In this document: positions 55,131 to 63,308 of the stretch, one piece after another
Numbering within the stretch: position 1 is the stretch's first letter
Layout of the letters: every line of letters begins with the position of its first letter
Notes under the pieces: generated by a model
What the model was told of the DNA's origin: nothing
Databases searched by the model: none
The model's input: only the letters and a program-made list of their open reading frames with translations
Assembly: GCA_965204735.1 (NCBI GenBank)
Contig: OZ242008.1
Span: 3,840,001-3,904,000 of the forward strand
Length of the DNA stretch: 64,000 bases
DNA from: Longimicrobiales bacterium
GTDB taxonomy: Bacteria > Gemmatimonadota > Gemmatimonadetes > Longimicrobiales > Gaopeijiaceae
Direction of reading: 5' to 3'
Position numbers and translations under genes: made by a program

Positions 55131-55303
55131 GGGGAAAGCTAGCCAAGCGGGGCGCGGACATGCCGGGCGGGCAGAATCGATCCGGGCGCGGTCGGGCGAA
55201 CTCCGGGGCAGCCGGCCCCGGCGACGGGCGCACCGAGCTGCGCGGTCGCCGAGGGTGGGCGCGCCGCTTGCCCCCGGACGTCCAGACGGGTATTCTTCCC
55301 TTC

Positions 55304-56290
55304 ATGGACGCGGCGATTCGGCAGCATCGCAGGGTACCGGGCCAGGTGCGGGATGCGGTCGCCGATGCGGCTGGAGACGGAGCTTCCGCAGCCGCGGCGC
55401 TGGGCCGCTCCTACGTCTACAAGAAGGCGGTCCTGCATCACGCCGACTGCTTCGAGTGGTTGTCGCGACAGACGCCAAGCTCGATGCAGGCCGTCGTAAC
55501 GGACCCGCCCTATGGACTTGTGGAGTACTCCGACACAGAACAACGCAAGCTGCGTCTGCGGAAAGGCGGGGTGTGGCGCCAGCCTCCTTCGTTTGACGGC
55601 GCGCAACGATCGCCCTTGCCACGTTTCACGGTGCTGTCCCGGAGCGACCTGAACAGGATCACCGATTTCTTTCGCGAGTGGGCCGCTCTGTTGTTGCCCG
55701 TTCTCGTCCCTGGCGCAAACGTGGTGGTGGCGGCGAATCCGTTGCTGTCCCACATCGTTTCCGGCGCTCTTGCGCAAGCGGGCCTGGAGCGCCGCGGCGA
55801 AATCGCTAGGCTGGTCATGACGATGCGGGGCGGCGACCGTCCTAAGGGCGCCCACGAGGAGTTCAGTTGCGTGAGCGTAATGCCACGTTCCATGTGGGAG
55901 CCATGGCTGATTTTTCGGAAGCCCTTGCAAGGCCGTGTTCAAGACAACCTTCGACGTTGGCGCGTCGGCGGCTTTCGTCGGCCCTCTTCCGGCAGACCCT
56001 TTGGGGACGTGATTCCGTCGGCGCCGACTCGCAAGGAAGAACGCCGGCTGGCGCCCCACCCCAGCTTGAAGCCGCAGAGCTTTATGCGTCAACTCGTTCG
56101 GGGTGTGTTGCCGCTTGGAGAAGGCACCGTGCTGGATCCGTTTTGCGGAGCTGGATCGACCTTGGCTGCTGCTCAGGTCGTGGGCTACGAGAGCATCGGC
56201 GTCGAGAGGGACCACGCCTACTTTGCAGTTGCTTGCGAGGCGCTGCCGAAGCTGGCAAGCTATCGGCCAAGGCAGGCTGGTCTGTTGTGA
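55304..56290 (+). CDS. Beta-class amino DNA methyltransferase (DPPY)
   Basis: VTDPPYG, HPSLKP, VLDPFCGAGST; visibly less GC-rich. Confidence 0.9.
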   Translation: MDAAIRQHRRVPGQVRDAVADAAGDGASAAAALGRSYVYKKAVLHHADCFEWLSRQTPSSMQAVVTDPPYGLVEYSDTEQRKLRLRKGGVWRQPPSFDGAQRSPLPRFTVLSRSDLNRITDFFREWAALLLPVLVPGANVVVAANPLLSHIVSGALAQAGLERRGEIARLVMTMRGGDRPKGAHEEFSCVSVMPRSMWEPWLIFRKPLQGRVQDNLRRWRVGGFRRPSSGRPFGDVIPSAPTRKEERRLAPHPSLKPQSFMRQLVRGVLPLGEGTVLDPFCGAGSTLAAAQVVGYESIGVERDHAYFAVACEALPKLASYRPRQAGLL

Positions 56291-56305
56291 ACGAATTGTC
56301 CGCAA

Positions 56306-56914
56306 TCAGTCGATGTTGTATATCCATGCTTGCCGGAGTTTCTTGATTCCGTTACGGTGCAGCGTTGCGGTCCGTGTGCCGAGTTCCCCCCTCGCGTTCT
56401 TTCGGAAGTCGTCGACTTCCACATGACCCAAGTACACTTCGGTAAACATCATTGGGCGTCGCTCGCGCGCTGGCTCGGTCTCGCTGTCGACCTTGTACAC
56501 GAACACGCACATCCATTGTTCTCTGGCACCATGCATATCCACGGCGCCTCCCTTCTTCCGCGTTGACTTGATTTCCACGCCCTCGGAGCCTGACTTGACA
56601 CTGTCGTTCGGATGGGCACCAGCGACGACAAGGTCCGGGTGGCCATTGAAGTACTGGTTCTCCACCAGACTTCTGGCGTGGTTCGCCAAGCTGGTGGTGA
56701 GCAGATCGGAGACGAATCCAGACATCGCTGCCGGGCGCATCATGTCGTCGAGGCGTCGCAACCCGCGCTTGAGCAGCAGTTCGTTTACGTCGTGGAAGAA
56801 GTCGTAGACGTCCTGCATCGCGATATGGAAATCCATCAACCTGAGGGAATAAGGCAATACGGCGTTTTGGTTGAATTTGGCCCGATCAACCTTGCGAGGA
56901 CCGCCTGGATTCAT
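56306..56914 (-). CDS. Putative type II restriction endonuclease (PD-(D/E)XK)
   Basis: GHPDL...GVEIKS motif; convergent with MTase; less GC-rich. Confidence 0.6.
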   Translation of the reverse strand: MNPGGPRKVDRAKFNQNAVLPYSLRLMDFHIAMQDVYDFFHDVNELLLKRGLRRLDDMMRPAAMSGFVSDLLTTSLANHARSLVENQYFNGHPDLVVAGAHPNDSVKSGSEGVEIKSTRKKGGAVDMHGAREQWMCVFVYKVDSETEPARERRPMMFTEVYLGHVEVDDFRKNARGELGTRTATLHRNGIKKLRQAWIYNID

Positions 56915-57212: not shown

Positions 57213-58346
57213 TCAGGCCATTGCGGCGAAGAGGGAGGCGTGGCTGGCGAGGATGCGGTCGGTGGCGGCCGGATCCGGGTCCAGCGTCTCCACGCCCTCC
57301 TCGAAGGTGCCGCCCAGGAGCACGCCGTCGGTGCGAGGGAACATGTAGAGGCTCTGCGAGGGCGAGAAGCGTCCGCCGCCGACGGTCAGGTACTCGATTC
57401 CGGGCTGGGGCCGCAAGACCACCAGCTGTCCCTTGATCGGTACGAGGGAGCGGTCCCCGAATAGCTCCCGGGACCCCAAGCCGGTGCAGTTGACGACGAC
57501 GGGCTCCGGGAGGGCGGCCAGCTGGCGACGGTCGGCGATCTCGCCCACCACCACGTCGCCGCCGGCGATGCGGAAGTCGCGCAGAACCGCCCGAAGGTAG
57601 CGCGACGGCTCGATGAACATCGTCGCGACCCGACGGGCGTGGCGCGTCGGGAAGGGATGATCGTCGCCCTCCAGGTCCTCCCACTCGGGAAACAGATCGC
57701 GAATGCGAGCCATGTGCTCCGGCTCCCCCAGCGGGCGCTCGGAGAGGAAGTAGTTGTCGATCCAGCGGACGCCGTAGTCGGGGCCGACCAGACGTTGGAA
57801 GCTTCGGTGGGCGAGGCGCGCTGCCCGCTCGAACTGAGCGCCGAACGGTCCGGACAGGTCGTCCGCCACCGTCGTGGGCGACCATTGCGCGCCCGCAACG
57901 TTGGAGGTGGTGTGTGGCGGGAGCTCCCGTGCGTAGATCGTCGCCCGACGGCCCCGGCGTTGCAGCAGCGTGGCGGTCGCAAGTCCCACCGCTCCGGCCC
58001 CCAGCACGGCCACGTCGCCTTCGGTTCCAGCGTCGGCGACCAGCTCCGCCGCCATCGCCGCGGTGCCCCTGGAAAGGGTTACGCCGGCCCCGCCGTGGCC
58101 GTAGTTGTGGACCAGCAGCTTTCCGGCCACGCGCTCCGCCTGGACCACGAACCCCTCGGGGCGGTAGGGCCGCAGCCCGGCGACCACTCGAATCACCCGG
58201 TCGCGGGAGACTCGGACGGGTCGAACCCACGCCCTGCCGTCCGGTCCCCAGCCCGGGCCGGGGCGTCCTCTTCCGAAGGCGCCGCAGGCGCTTGCCCAAC
58301 CGGCGGCGGAAACGCCCGCCACCTTGAGCCATCTGCGCCTGTCCAT
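57213..58346 (-). CDS. Tat-exported D-amino acid oxidase family FAD oxidoreductase
   Basis: MDRRRWLK; GLRPYR and HNYGHGGAG precede GAGAVGL, TSNVAG, VNCTGLG. Confidence 0.88.
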   Translation of the reverse strand: MDRRRWLKVAGVSAAGWASACGAFGRGRPGPGWGPDGRAWVRPVRVSRDRVIRVVAGLRPYRPEGFVVQAERVAGKLLVHNYGHGGAGVTLSRGTAAMAAELVADAGTEGDVAVLGAGAVGLATATLLQRRGRRATIYARELPPHTTSNVAGAQWSPTTVADDLSGPFGAQFERAARLAHRSFQRLVGPDYGVRWIDNYFLSERPLGEPEHMARIRDLFPEWEDLEGDDHPFPTRHARRVATMFIEPSRYLRAVLRDFRIAGGDVVVGEIADRRQLAALPEPVVVNCTGLGSRELFGDRSLVPIKGQLVVLRPQPGIEYLTVGGGRFSPSQSLYMFPRTDGVLLGGTFEEGVETLDPDPAATDRILASHASLFAAMA

Positions 58347-58381: not shown

Positions 58382-58852
58382 CTACTTGTCGTCCTCCCTG
58401 ACCACCAGCTCGGTCGTGATCTCGATGCACTTTCGCAAGGTCCGGTAGACCGGGCATCGCATGGCGTGCACCTCGAAAGCGCGCTGGACCGCGTCCTCGT
58501 CGGCCCCGGACGCCTTCAGGTCGTAGCGCACATGAACCTCCCGGATGACCAGGACGCCCTCGTCCTTGCCCACCTTGCCGCGAACGTCGGCGGTCAGCCG
58601 TCCATCCGAAGCGTTGATCCCGCGTGCCTCCAGCACGCCCCCAAAGGTGCCGACCAGTCAGCCGCCGGTGGCGGCCATCACGTAGTCGAGGGTGGTCGTG
58701 ATCTCTTGGGCCGGGCTCACGCCGTAGTGCTCGGCAATCGCGCCGTGGACCCCGAACTCGACGGGTCCGTCGTGGGCCGGGAGGTACGCAAGGCGGTGGG
58801 GTCCGCGCGTGCGTTCGATGCGGATGCTGGCTTCGTAGGCCGTGTCGTTCAT
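58382..58852 (-). CDS. OsmC/Ohr-like protein with in-frame TGA, probable selenocysteine
   Basis: One frame from ATG 58852 to TAG 58382 with TGA at 58658-58660: LDYVMAATGG-U-LVGTFGG; distal CPVYRTL motif. Confidence 0.85.
58622..58638 (-). promoter_or_regulatory. Putative bacterial SECIS hairpin
   Basis: GCGUGC-UGGAG-GCACGC perfect 6-bp stem; loop begins 26 nt after UGA, G at second loop position. Confidence 0.65.
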
Positions 58853-58938: not shown

Positions 58939-59505
58939 TCAGGCGGCGGGCCAGAGCCAGCCGAAGAGGGCGCCGGTGACGACCGCGTAGACCACCCCGT
59001 CCACGGCGTACTTGAAGGCGACTCTGGCGGGCAACCCGAACCAGATGCTGTCCTGCACGCCGATGAAGCCGTACGCCAGGAGCGCGGCCAGCCCGGTGGT
59101 GTGGAAGATGGTCGCAAAGCCAGTCCCCGGGGGCAGCGCCGGCGAGGCCAGCAAGGCGATGACGATGCTGACGACCAAGTAGTAGACGAACGACTTGATC
59201 AGCGACGAGCGCATGTTCAAGACCGCCTCGGGGTCGCGAACCCGAAGGATTCCGACCGGTCCCGCCTTGACTTTGGCTCGGTACTCCTCGGCCGCCGCCT
59301 GCTCCCACTTGGCGAACGGAAAGTAGTAGTAGCCCGGCCCCACGCCGACGAACTTCCTCACGGCGTCCATGAAGCCGTCTTCGTCCTCGACCCCCTTCAG
59401 GTCCGACTTGTGGTGGGGCATGGCCATCCAGATGATCGCGCTGACGACGAACAGCGCCGCCGAGGTGGCGAGGATGGGCAGCCAGAGCATGGTGATCAGG
59501 TGCAC
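58939..59505 (-). CDS. Hypothetical membrane protein
   Basis: AAGGAG + GTG; LWLPIL..., WMAMPHHKSD, PGYYYFP, four TMs, ends WLWP. Confidence 0.75.
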   Translation of the reverse strand: MHLITMLWLPILATSAALFVVSAIIWMAMPHHKSDLKGVEDEDGFMDAVRKFVGVGPGYYYFPFAKWEQAAAEEYRAKVKAGPVGILRVRDPEAVLNMRSSLIKSFVYYLVVSIVIALLASPALPPGTGFATIFHTTGLAALLAYGFIGVQDSIWFGLPARVAFKYAVDGVVYAVVTGALFGWLWPAA

Positions 59506-59856
59506 GGGGCGCTCCTTGCTGGGGAAGGTCGCTGGTTCCACGGGTTGGCCCGGCGGGTCCCGACGGCGAGTTGGAAGGATAGTGGCCCGAAGGCCGCCGA
59601 GGCAAGCGCGCAACTCTCCCGATGTTGGCCGCCTTCGGCAGGCCGTCGCGACGCCGGCCGGGGGGAGCCTCCGCGGCAACTCTGCGGAGCGACGGACCCT
59701 GGTCGGGCGGCCGCTTGCCCGGGCTGGGCATTCGGCCTTATTGTACTGTCCGGGTTGTGGCTTGTGTCCAACGATGTCGTGCCCCATCTGCTGCCCGTTC
59801 ACGACGCGCCAGCGATTTCAGGAGGAATCGGAGCCAGAATGCGAAGCGAAGCTGAG

Positions 59857-60291
59857 ATGGCGAGCAGTAGTAGATCCGAACAACCGAGATGGCGTTATCG
59901 GTTCGCGAGCTTCTCTCGTGCGCACGACCTGCTGCACCAGGCGCTTGAAGGGGACGTCGAGACACTGAGTCCCTTGGAGCTTGCGGGGGTGAGTCGATAC
60001 TTCGGCTTCACGTTCGAGCTGGGCTGGAAGCTTCTCAGGGACCGCCTGGAGTACGACGGAGTCTTCCTCCCGATCGTTACGCCCCGAGCGGTTGTTCGGG
60101 CGGCGCACGAAGCTCGATTGATTGAGGACGAAGACGGCGCAACATGGATGGACATGCTGGGAGACCGCAACAAGACATCCCACATGTACGACGCCGGCTT
60201 GGTCGCGGACGTCGTCAGGGACATCCAGTCTCGCTATCTGACGGCCTTCGATCACTTGCGTGCGAAGATTCGCGAGCAGATGCCGTCGTGA
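59857..60291 (+). CDS. HI0074-family HEPN protein (nucleotidyltransferase substrate-binding / HepT-like)
   Basis: RWRYRF, FGFTFELGWKLL, TPRAVVR, WMDMLGDRNKTSHMYD with intact Rx4H. Confidence 0.88.
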   Translation: MASSSRSEQPRWRYRFASFSRAHDLLHQALEGDVETLSPLELAGVSRYFGFTFELGWKLLRDRLEYDGVFLPIVTPRAVVRAAHEARLIEDEDGATWMDMLGDRNKTSHMYDAGLVADVVRDIQSRYLTAFDHLRAKIREQMPS

Positions 60292-60330
60292 GCGCACCGG
60301 GCGTTCCTGCGGCCGGGAGATGGTGCGACA

Positions 60331-62004
60331 ATGGCTAGTTGGGACAGCTACTTGAAACGTGCCGAGAGCACGGAAACGGCCTGGGACTTAGACGCGGATG
60401 GGAGTCGGCTCAAGATCGCCCGGCCTGCTTGGGTCGAAGATCGACAAGAAGAGCTTAGGAGGGCCGCCGAAGCGATGGAGGCCCAGAACAACTGGCGCGT
60501 GCCTCTTGATGCCGCCTACCGGGGTCGGGGTGCCTACGACCCGTTCCCCGGACGGCGACGTTTTCAGCACTGGTACGATTCGGACCAGGCGGGCATGCGA
60601 GATACGCTAATGACCGCCTGGAAGCCGCTTGCCAGCGGTGCGGACAAGGATCAGGAAGTTCTTGGTCGTATTCGTCGCGTCGAGAAACAGATACCCCAGG
60701 GAACAAAGGGTCTGAAGGACGGAGCACAGCCCTACCGTGCGGTAATGCTCAATCTGATTTCCGTCTTGATGAGCCGCGTCGACGTTGAGAGGTACCCCGA
60801 ATACATGTGGATGTGGTTCAGCGACGCTTTCAAGCGTACAGGCTATGGTGGCCCAGGAAACAAGCTGGACGTCGCAGAGACATATGGCTTCTTCTTGAAA
60901 TTCCTTGATAAGTTCATCGAGGAAGCAAAGGAAAGACTGCCCGTCTCCAGTCGGCTGGATGCATGCCTTCTTATCGACAGCATTCGGAGAAGCGACACTC
61001 ACCGCACCCGGGCAAGCGATGATACCGAGAGGATTTCGGCAGACGACGAGCTGCTCGCCCTGGCAAGCCAACTCTCTTTGGATGTGCACGAACTTCAGGA
61101 GATCCAGTCTCTCCTCGAAGACAAGCGTCAGGTCATCTTCCAGGGGCCGCCCGGCACCGGAAAGACCTACGTTGCCCGAGAGCTGGCCAAGTGCCTCGCC
61201 CGTTTCACGGACGACGAGGACGAGTCCGCAACCGAAGCCCGAGTCCGGCTCGTCCAGTTCCATCCGGCGTATGCATACGAGGACTTCATCCAGGGGTTTC
61301 GGCCCAAGCTGATCAATGATCAGCCAGGCTTCGAGTTGCGGGACGGTCCCCTTGTCCAGATGGCGGAACGGGCCCGGGAGGAACCCGAAGCGAGGCACTT
61401 CCTTGTGATCGACGAGATCAATCGGGGGAACCTTGCCAAGGTGTTCGGCGAGCTGTACTTCCTGCTAGAGTATCGAGACGAGGAGCTGCGGCTCCAGTAC
61501 TCCGACTTGCCGTTCAGCTTGCCGAAAAACCTCTACATCATCGGCACCATGAACACGGCGGATCGCTCCATCGCGCTTGTGGACCTGGCGCTGCGACGAC
61601 GCTTCCACTTCGTCGAGTTCCACCCGGACGTCCCGCCGATCCGGGGCCTGCTCAAGCGATGGCTGAAAAAGAACGCGCCAGATGTGTTATGGATCGCCGA
61701 GGTAGTCGATCGCGCCAACGAGAAGCTGGACGACCACCAGGCGTCGATCGGGCCGACCTACTTCATGCCAAAAGACGGACGACTGGACGAATCCAGGATA
61801 AGCATGATCTGGAAGCACAACGTTCTGCCCTACATTGAAGAACGCCTCTTCGGAGACCGCGAGAAGCTCGAGGACTTCAAGTTGAGCACGCCGAGCAATG
61901 AAGTCCAAGACGCCGAAGACGGACAGAAGGAAGCCGAGACCGATGCCGGCACGTCCGACGACACGGCGGCCGGGACGGAAGGCGAGCCGGGCTCCGACGA
62001 CTGA
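60331..62004 (+). CDS. mcrB: McrB-like AAA+ GTPase
   Basis: GPPGTGKT, VQFHPAYAYEDF, IDEINRGN, GTMNTADRS, ALRRRF. Confidence 0.92.
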   Translation: MASWDSYLKRAESTETAWDLDADGSRLKIARPAWVEDRQEELRRAAEAMEAQNNWRVPLDAAYRGRGAYDPFPGRRRFQHWYDSDQAGMRDTLMTAWKPLASGADKDQEVLGRIRRVEKQIPQGTKGLKDGAQPYRAVMLNLISVLMSRVDVERYPEYMWMWFSDAFKRTGYGGPGNKLDVAETYGFFLKFLDKFIEEAKERLPVSSRLDACLLIDSIRRSDTHRTRASDDTERISADDELLALASQLSLDVHELQEIQSLLEDKRQVIFQGPPGTGKTYVARELAKCLARFTDDEDESATEARVRLVQFHPAYAYEDFIQGFRPKLINDQPGFELRDGPLVQMAERAREEPEARHFLVIDEINRGNLAKVFGELYFLLEYRDEELRLQYSDLPFSLPKNLYIIGTMNTADRSIALVDLALRRRFHFVEFHPDVPPIRGLLKRWLKKNAPDVLWIAEVVDRANEKLDDHQASIGPTYFMPKDGRLDESRISMIWKHNVLPYIEERLFGDREKLEDFKLSTPSNEVQDAEDGQKEAETDAGTSDDTAAGTEGEPGSDD

Positions 62005-62018
62005 TCGCCTCCAAACCA

Positions 62019-63308
62019 ATGCAAGACAGCAACAGGGCCGCAGTGCGGCAGATCGACCTCTACGAGCACCGGAGAAGCGATCCGCTGCCTCTCTCGGCCA
62101 AGGAGATCAAGGATCTGCGCAGCGTGCTGGACTCGGCGCGACTCGGCATCGAGCCCGCCGAGGGAACGGCTGGGCACTGCTATCACCTGAAGCCTTCGTC
62201 CACCATCGGCGCGTTTCAAGTCGGCGACCTCTCGGTGTCGATCCGGCCCAAGCTGGCGATCTCCCAAGTGCTCTTCCTCGCGTCCTATGCAATGGACGAA
62301 TTCAAGGCGCCCCCTGGGTGGCCTCCGCAGGTGCCCACGTCCGACCTTGTTCAGGCGATGGCCTACTTGTTGGCTCTTGCGGCGCAGCGAGCCTTCGCTC
62401 GCGGACTGCATCGCGACTACCGAGAGCACGAGGAGGCGTTGACGACTGTCAAGGGCCGGATTCGCGTTGCCGAGCAGATTCGACGCCGCTTTGGCGTCCC
62501 GATCCCCGTCGAAGTGCGCTACGACGACTTCACCGAAGACGTCACCGCAAACCGTCTGGTGAAGGCCGCAGCCGAGGCGCTGATCCAGATGCGTCTTCGG
62601 GACCGGAACGACCGCACGAGGCTGACCCAAGTGTTGGCCAGGCTGGAGAACGTGTCGTGGGTGGAGTACGAACGCGAGCGCGTGCCCGATGTCCGCTTCA
62701 ACCGCCTCAACGAGCACTACCGAGAGGTTGTGGCGCTCTCCCGCATCGTGCTCCAGCACCGGTCCATCGAGGCACAGCGCGGCGACATCCTGGCGCCCGG
62801 CTTCCTGATGGACATGAACAGGGTCTTCGAGAGCTTCGTCGTGCGGGCGCTGCGGAAGGAGCTGAAGCTCACCGAGCGCACGTTTCGGTCGGGTCAGAGG
62901 CTGGGACAGCACATCTTCTTGGCCAAGGACGAAGGCATCCAGCTCAAGCCCGACCTCACGTGGTGGGAGAGGGGCGAATGCACCTTCGTCGGCGACGCCA
63001 AGTACAAGCGCATCGACCACGACACGCCCAACGCCGACCTCTACCAAATGCTGGCGTACGCCACTGCCCTGGACTTGCCCGGCGGCCTGCTGATCTACGC
63101 CCAGGGCACGGAGGCAAAGACGTACGCGGAGGCAAAGACGTACGAGGTGCGCCACTGCGGGAAGCTGCTGGAAGTGTTCGCCCTCGACCTTTCCGGGACT
63201 CGCCAGGAGCTGTTGGACCGAGTGCGGGCGCTGGCCGAGCGCGTTCGCAGGCTGCGCAGCATGGCCCGCGACCAAGTCGTCGCCGACAAGCCGACGCGCG
63301 CGGCCTGA
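62019..63308 (+). CDS. mcrC: McrC-like nuclease subunit
   Basis: RGLHRDY, VKGRI, NRLVKAA, DMNRVFE, LKPDL, DAKYK, DLYQMLAY. Confidence 0.92.
   Translation: MQDSNRAAVRQIDLYEHRRSDPLPLSAKEIKDLRSVLDSARLGIEPAEGTAGHCYHLKPSSTIGAFQVGDLSVSIRPKLAISQVLFLASYAMDEFKAPPGWPPQVPTSDLVQAMAYLLALAAQRAFARGLHRDYREHEEALTTVKGRIRVAEQIRRRFGVPIPVEVRYDDFTEDVTANRLVKAAAEALIQMRLRDRNDRTRLTQVLARLENVSWVEYERERVPDVRFNRLNEHYREVVALSRIVLQHRSIEAQRGDILAPGFLMDMNRVFESFVVRALRKELKLTERTFRSGQRLGQHIFLAKDEGIQLKPDLTWWERGECTFVGDAKYKRIDHDTPNADLYQMLAYATALDLPGGLLIYAQGTEAKTYAEAKTYEVRHCGKLLEVFALDLSGTRQELLDRVRALAERVRRLRSMARDQVVADKPTRAA

Follow-up and report, generated by a model that had tools for sequence, protein, structure and literature searches.

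The segment at positions 58382-58852 of the window (the whole stretch of 64,000 nucleotides that was analysed, from a Longimicrobiales bacterium) holds one conserved gene of the OsmC fold, whose internal UGA very likely encodes selenocysteine. Its product is a predicted redox enzyme with selenocysteine (Sec) at residue 65 and cysteine at residue 133, most likely a hydroperoxide reductase; we put the probability of this reading at roughly 0.9. The gene would add a widespread clade to the bacterial selenoproteome, one that lies outside every model of NCBIfam release 20 and is divided into two halves by gene callers. To a specialist it would come as no surprise, as the concept of an OsmC-fold selenoprotein is 20 years old.

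The reading frame and its internal TGA

Translation of both strands placed the OsmC-fold gene on the minus strand; the plus strand gives an unrelated frame. From an ATG at 58852 to position 58382 the gene comprises 156 codons, the TGA included, and then TAG. TGA at codon 65 (58660-58658) is the only internal stop, and the GC3 of the two halves flanking it is 0.89 and 0.88. The list of open reading frames breaks the gene into an 84-residue piece (58636-58382) and another frame that ends at the TGA. The earlier note had joined both pieces into a single frame broken at 58658-58660, and the same TGA was found in the context it described; its figure of 156 sense codons is right for the length, which is made up of 155 sense codons plus the TGA. 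The CPV motif it had placed near the C-terminus occurs as CPVY, beginning at residue 133. The closest named records, at 86% identity, belong to the Longimicrobiales within the Gemmatimonadota. All features lie on the minus strand:

58382-58852, minus strand: OsmC-fold (PF02566) gene of 156 codons plus TAG with one TGA read through (Pfam, structure model, GC3)
58658-58660, minus strand: in-frame TGA, codon 65, likely Sec, at the column of the first catalytic Cys (conservation, PDB alignments)
58622-58638, minus strand: SECIS-type hairpin with a 6-bp stem and the loop UGGAG (pairing, energy, synonymous constraint)
58454-58456, minus strand: Cys133 of the CP motif, predicted resolving cysteine (conservation; role by analogy with Ohr/OsmC)
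58724-58753, minus strand: signature GVHGAIAEHY, residues 34-43, with His36 and His42 (conservation, structure model)

The read-through protein scored 53.4 bits against the Pfam OsmC model (PF02566; cut-off 27.5). A promoter and terminator scan gave no hit on the strand of the gene, and fused forms of the protein numbered 0 among 8000 longer candidates, a count that is weak evidence.

To follow the TGA through related genomes, we searched 61 of them and obtained matches in 32. All 43 strong places, distributed over 29 genomes, contained a TGA, and none of the 5 weak places did. In the strong loci of these relatives the TGA fell exactly on column 65 in 29/29 cases; a thirtieth, weak locus could not be aligned. 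Likewise, it fell on this column in 80/80 loci kept from a species collection (80 of the 271 found). Taken together, TGA occupies column 65 in 109/109 loci from Gemmatimonadota and Acidobacteriota, a number that includes the window's own locus and four duplicates; dropping nine left 100 distinct full Sec proteins. A profile search, in which a TGA anywhere within the match was counted, detected the gene in 66/251 Gemmatimonadota genomes (TGA in 108/108 matches) and in 33/201 Acidobacteriota genomes (37/38). The lone Acidobacteriota match without TGA spans residues 1-61 only. Contigs assembled from runs of three studies had no other letter at 58658-58660, and in two runs belonging to one study the entire segment is covered by a single piece.

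Database proteins gave a complementary view. We obtained 203 aligned stretches from 194 proteins, of which 101 cover column 65, 73 start or end at it and 29 are otherwise partial. Cys was present at the column in 75 of the 101 (one protein counted twice); the other 26 had Trp (7), Gly (5), Ser (5), Ala (4), Asp (2), Val (2) or Arg (1), with no break. This tally indicates that Cys homologues exist, for example in Actinomadura (P0076) and Thermoleophilia (P0207), and that the TGA form is often divided in annotation. Judged by a coarse pattern rule, 39/46 database relatives are broken at the UGA, in line with the earlier claim that annotation overlooks the gene. In alignments with the structures 1ukk, 1ml8, 2opl and 2onf, their first conserved Cys falls on codon 65. 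The earlier note had also raised the possibilities that homologues carry Trp or another non-Cys residue at this column and that the TGA is unique to the assembly. What we found there was TGA in every genome locus and mostly Cys in the database proteins, and the TGA recurs in relatives, in both phyla and in contigs of other studies.

In some divergent full-length homologues, the catalytic residue is replaced by Ser, Gly, Asp or Ala (P0058, P0060, P0063, P0068, P0073, P0074, P0093, P0129 and P0180). Most retain the second Cys, and they are possibly non-catalytic members.

A few Trp forms do exist. A single metagenome scan, which sought non-TGA codons only and thus comes with no TGA count from the same collection, returned three contigs with TGG at the column (L124, L125 and L126). 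The hairpin is intact in all three; one contig is frameshifted, one has an aberrant stretch and one is seemingly whole. Some Trp forms are therefore real DNA. The idea that every Trp form in the databases goes back to a TGA misread through translation table 4 is wrong at least for P0006, the only one of the seven traced to DNA, as it matches a real-TGG contig. We interpret the TGG contigs as rare single-base mutants or errors, possibly recent loss-of-function alleles or assembly errors. The proposal that UGA encodes Sec at the catalytic column is thus supported, with the addition that Trp occurs there in seven of the 101 stretches and in these three contigs.

The hairpin and the selenocysteine machinery

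Directly behind the TGA, the transcript could form a stem of GCGUGC (58638-58633) and GCACGC (58627-58622) around the loop UGGAG (58632-58628), exactly the perfect stem described in the earlier note. The stem begins at the 20th base after the UGA and the loop 25 nt after it. The published bSECIS model (PMC13188914) allows loops of 3-9 nt, stems of 4-16 bp and a distance of 16-37 nt between UGA and loop, and asks for a G within the first two positions of the loop and an energy of at most -7.5 kcal/mol. The hairpin lies within these limits with a loop of 5 nt (3 if U-G closes), a stem of 6-7 bp, G in second position and -9.7 kcal/mol. A fold of the surrounding 61 nt was no more stable than chance (z = +0.85; 163/200 shuffles as stable), and folding energy was therefore dropped as evidence. 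Of the 66,249 TGA triplets in the genome, 819 (1.2%) precede a loosely SECIS-like pattern and 5 the exact geometry.

Conservation of the hairpin was far more informative than its energy. The 6-bp stem pairs and the loop starts with UG in 109/109 loci; the combination of hairpin and TGA is thus more than chance, as the position of the TGA and the full pairing of the stem recur in every one of them. Among 78 distinct sequences (79 of the 100 aligned), 468/468 stem cells were paired; pairing was 100% compared to 96.2% in shuffles, none of 500 being as high, and 3-75% in slid controls. Two stem pairs show compensated exchanges, one being C-G in 64 sequences and U-A in 14, the other G-C in 71 and A-U in 7, each of which may represent one or few events. 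RNAalifold, unaided, recovered the same stem together with a seventh pair, U-G or U-A. In both compensatory changes, an exchange of Ala for Val encoded by one arm is accompanied by a synonymous change in the opposite arm. Codon entropy, measured over 63 sequences under 85% identity, averaged 0.36 bits in codons 72-77 (5 columns) compared to 1.58 elsewhere (59 columns). Leu74 is CTG in 63/63, and Gly78, just outside the stem, is constrained too (0.30). The hairpin thus offers a clean natural case in which RNA structure appears to dictate the choice of codon and, in the Ala-to-Val exchanges matched by synonymous changes, even that of the amino acid.

The genome carries the required machinery, as the earlier note had expected: tRNA-Sec (80.1 bits), selA (487), selB (307) and selD (372) all scored above their curated cut-offs, and selD itself bears a TGA. 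All 66 gene carriers among the Gemmatimonadota have selA, and the gene was found in 0/47 selA-less genomes; selA was matched in 32/33 carriers among the Acidobacteriota and in 27/29 of the close-relative set (in one as a partial gene). This co-occurrence is weaker than it appears, since related genomes are not independent and selA is common in both phyla (204/251 and 161/201 genomes, each tally including one unpublished, selA-positive genome without the gene, G208 and G327, respectively). Three carriers had no selA match. One of these (G011) has selB and tRNA-Sec and another (G381) has selB and a TGA-bearing selD; in the third (G010, 78% complete) a TGA-bearing selD was present, and selB and tRNA-Sec were not found. 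TGA is the main stop of the genome, ending 1109 of 1762 long gene-like open reading frames, and RF2 is present and intact. Therefore, the code is not changed genome-wide and read-through competes with termination. According to established Sec biology, SelB with Sec-tRNA would bind the GG loop of the hairpin and decode the UGA in competition with RF2.

Since one conserved frame is followed by a conserved hairpin just behind the codon, we consider it close to certain, as far as comparison of sequences allows, that the UGA is decoded as Sec. A true stop dividing the gene into two translationally coupled halves would fit the role of TGA as main stop, the presence of RF2, an ATG directly after the TGA in 26/109 loci and the separate entry of the halves in databases. 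Such a division is very improbable: in 83/109 loci, the window's included, a Leu codon follows the TGA, the break would take out exactly the catalytic residue in mid-helix, the Cys homologues are single chains, and both the hairpin and the link to selA would go unexplained. Insertion of Trp (or Gly) through a changed code or suppression could account for the Trp in seven of the 101 aligned stretches and for the real TGG of the three contigs. Against it stand the dominance of TGA as stop together with an intact RF2, the fact that tRNA-Sec is the only tRNA with a TCA anticodon at the default threshold, and the complete lack of TGG in the 109 genome loci. Moreover, the TGG alleles lie one base from TGA and keep the hairpin, and two of the three are otherwise damaged; we rate this reading as highly unlikely. 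An error of assembly or a nonsense mutation in a pseudogene could be suspected because the genome is probably metagenome-assembled, like its closest named relatives. It is refuted by the recurrence of the same TGA in every locus over two phyla and in a 36%-identical paralog, and the contigs of the three studies hold no variant, which leaves it a negligible chance.

Relation to known OsmC-fold families and predicted function

In 2005, Zhang, Fomenko and Gladyshev predicted an OsmC-like selenoprotein with the motif UxxT (PMC1088965). It was found again in the GOS data in 2008 (PMC2398784), and PF02566 with UxxT is the sole OsmC entry that the available part of a 2026 catalogue gives (PMC13188914). 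The earlier statement that OsmC-like selenoproteins have been described in environmental bacteria is thus correct, and has been since 2005; the clade of the window is, however, not a member of that family. Both share the OsmC fold, Sec at the position of the first catalytic Cys, a second Cys near the C-terminus and a SECIS just 3' of the UGA. In contrast, the published sequences, compared by eye, have GIGF-U-LLT and a second Cys in GCF, whereas the clade of the window has GG-U-LxGT, a CP motif and the GVHG helix. UxxT is not matched, as the third position after Sec is Gly and the fourth Thr in 100/100 members (UxxGT). Against the NCBIfam model NF041052 (OsmC_like_Se) the protein scored 25.2 bits with a cut-off of 95, and the best E value among 63 members was 3.3e-8. 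No genome exceeded the cut-off (0/251 Gemmatimonadota, 0/201 Acidobacteriota), though 66 and 33 of them carry the gene type of the window. Three near-cut-off matches have a G(I/L/V)GFC motif and reach at most 2 bits on the profile of the window's clade; we tie NF041052 to the 2005 family because such near-members carry a motif of the published type. By profile scores and by motifs judged by eye, with these genomic near-members as stand-ins, the clade is separate from the published family.

The YhfA/Ohr-like group (E. coli-type YhfA, 1ml8; Ta0195, 2onf; PMC5384416, PMC8945050) has the same fold, the two catalytic positions, no canonical Glu and an acidic residue nine before the catalytic residue. 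The protein of the window differs from it in having Sec for Cys, in sharing 14-18% identity and in an extra His-rich helix, and the YhfA model NF008009 gave no match for it. With the lipoyl peroxidases Ohr and OsmC (TIGR03561, TIGR03562) it shares the fold (Z 12-13) and, by analogy, a predicted peroxidatic and resolving pair 68 residues apart; it differs in scoring 23.8 bits against an OsmC cut-off of 85.8, in the replaced Glu and in the lack of an Ohr match. The Cys homologues mentioned above, P0076 and P0207 among them, bear no family name; they fall in the same clade by profile and mostly keep Asp56, Gly68, Thr69, Arg77 and Cys133, but have Cys for Sec and retain Arg20 in 21/50 and His36 in 36/50. 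Compared with NCBIfam, 32 Cys homologues all stayed below the cut-off of every model. We found no description of the GVHG clade in literature listings or in the papers cited here; it may be catalogued in BSepDB under a broad OsmC-like family, although OsmC goes unmentioned in the available text and supplement of the BSepDB paper (PMC13326102), as it does in the main text of deep-Sep (PMC12013277). The protein thus works like the known OsmC-fold selenoprotein but lies outside that family, in a distinct clade unlisted in the catalogues consulted.

A structure model was built from an alignment of 63 sequences, namely 62 of the 100 distinct TGA genes and one natural Cys protein. It had a pLDDT of 95.6, with residues 37-42 helical. 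The best structural matches (Foldseek, VIA-align) are all of the OsmC/Ohr family, led by 2onf (Z 15.0, rmsd 2.0, 139 aligned residues), with 1ml8 at Z 14.3 (rmsd 1.9, 129 aligned). Both catalytic positions of the fold are present as codon 65 and Cys133, 68 residues apart; in the superfamily, the two positions lie about 60 residues apart (PMC5384416). Cys133 aligns with the second Cys of 1ukk, 1ml8 and 2onf and is Cys in 100/100 Sec members and in 49/50 full-length Cys homologues. His36 (100/100), His42 (96/100) and Tyr43 (98/100) are nearly invariant among Sec members and belong to GVHGAIAEHY; in the model, this segment forms a short helix that follows strand 3 and precedes the catalytic helix. 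In Ohr/OsmC, the catalytic Glu presumably lies ten residues before the Cys. At this column, which corresponds to the first Glu of EEL in 1ukk, all 100 Sec members have Leu, Ile or Val, and an invariant Asp56 follows one residue later. Arg20, also invariant (100/100), is placed by the model near the turn between strands 1 and 2; Ohr carries its Arg in the hairpin region of these strands (PMC5384416).

In Ohr/OsmC enzymes the first catalytic residue attacks the hydroperoxide and then bonds the second Cys, the pair being recycled by lipoyl groups; these enzymes need both Arg and Glu, and for Ohr-like proteins without both, peroxidase activity is uncertain (PMC5384416, PMC8945050). By analogy, the protein would dimerise and the selenolate of Sec65 would attack a hydroperoxide and condense with Cys133 to a selenenyl-sulfide, which a dithiol, for example a lipoyl group, would reduce again. 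As the canonical Glu is replaced by Leu, Ile or Val, activation would need Arg20, His36 and Asp56 to supply the required residues in its stead. Peroxides are the substrate we favour on this analogy, if only by a little, because the catalytic Glu of Ohr/OsmC is missing. The earlier note had read the UGA as the catalytic Sec of an OsmC-like protein. For a protein outside the OsmC-like selenoprotein, Ohr and OsmC subfamilies, a role of this Sec in a peroxidase is an inference and not a property of the family.

A sizeable chance, short of even, falls to Sec65 and Cys133 serving in another selenium-sulfur redox role, such as the handling of disulfides or persulfides, or in metal binding together with His36 and His42, with the UGA still read as Sec and peroxides not the substrate. 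Several observations fit such a role: hydrophobic residues at the catalytic Glu column, Asp56 where YhfA has an acidic residue in the 1ml8 alignment, uncharacterised Ohr-like proteins as top structural matches, two conserved His in a helix specific to the family and, in some Acidobacteriota, an adjoining DUF692-like gene and Cys-rich peptide. What speaks for hydroperoxide reduction instead is the invariance of Arg20, in the region where Ohr has its Arg (PMC5384416), a TGA-bearing peroxiredoxin-like neighbour in 4/7 Acidobacteriota loci and a D-amino-acid-oxidase-family neighbour at the locus of the window. With Sec and Cys versions both occurring in nature, the activity of Ohr-like proteins could be tested directly.

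Paralog, other Sec clades and gene neighbourhood

The genome encodes a paralog elsewhere (L128, G000:C1:3601364-3601822, minus strand) that is 36% identical, has its own TGA at the same column and forms an A-U compensated hairpin. Two matches to the gene occur in 42/66 Gemmatimonadota carriers. In a quick tree of 27 of the 100 Sec sequences and 61 database proteins, unrooted and without outgroup, the paralog group had a support of 100, while the main Sec group was interleaved with Cys forms and unresolved; we therefore claim no order of Sec gain and loss.

The genome search with NF041052 returned 92 places, ten of which have a TGA and form a YhfA-type OsmC clade in ten Gemmatimonadota genomes (L139-L148, e.g. 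G229:C11:39710-40087). The TGA is at the same catalytic Cys, in the motif LG[AST]-U-[TM]SMT, and in 10/10 loci, as read from the sequence, a separate 6-bp hairpin with the loop UGUAY stands 19 nt after the UGA. Five close Cys relatives have no such stem, and selA is present in all ten carrier genomes. With its TGA at that Cys and a hairpin unlike that of the window's clade, it suggests repeated recruitment of Sec to the OsmC fold. Tentatively, Sec may have come to occupy the position of the first catalytic cysteine in three or more independent recruitments (UxxT, GVHG and YhfA-type), each of which built its own SECIS in the same helix-coding sequence. The GVHG clade would then comprise two old paralogs in which a selenium chemistry of Arg20, His36 and Asp56 replaces the Arg-Glu pair of Ohr, a scenario that we regard as doubtful. 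Two further loci (L149 in G499 and L151 in G453) encode tandem NF041052-like OsmC domains in one frame, with the catalytic Cys motif in the second only.

Within the window, an uncharacterised gene for a hydrophobic membrane protein of 188 residues (58939-59505, minus strand; no Pfam or PADLOC match) lies 86 nt upstream of the OsmC-fold gene. A gene of the D-amino-acid-oxidase family (57213-58346, minus strand; PF01266, 126 bits), with a twin-arginine-like start as judged by eye, lies 35 nt downstream. Enzymes of the D-amino-acid-oxidase type make H2O2. The oxidase cluster occurs in 21/109 loci, all from close relatives, and the pairing of the two genes is suggestive only. Across the clade we found no conserved operon; neighbours are specific to lineages.

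Of seven Acidobacteriota loci checked, four (L103, L110, L117 and L120) are preceded upstream by a peroxiredoxin-like gene whose UxxC motif contains an in-frame TGA. Downstream, 10-11 loci of this phylum have a Cys-rich peptide and genes that we take, from labels given by eye, to be DUF692-like and DoxX-like. The Acidobacteriota locus is possibly a selenoprotein neighbourhood. The genome of the window itself holds two further candidate selenoprotein genes, near 907241 and 4119596 of G000:C1 (both plus strand), which are peroxiredoxin-like by eye, one with UxxC. In both, a hairpin follows the TGA; they come from a strict script filter whose list is incomplete, as it missed selD.

The three-gene block is flanked by defence-type genes, at 55160-56914 and at about 59840-63308 of the window. 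These comprise a type II methyltransferase (PADLOC, 357 bits) facing an unmatched open reading frame of 202 residues, a nucleotidyltransferase substrate-binding protein (PF08780), and a McrB-like AAA ATPase followed by McrC (PF10117).
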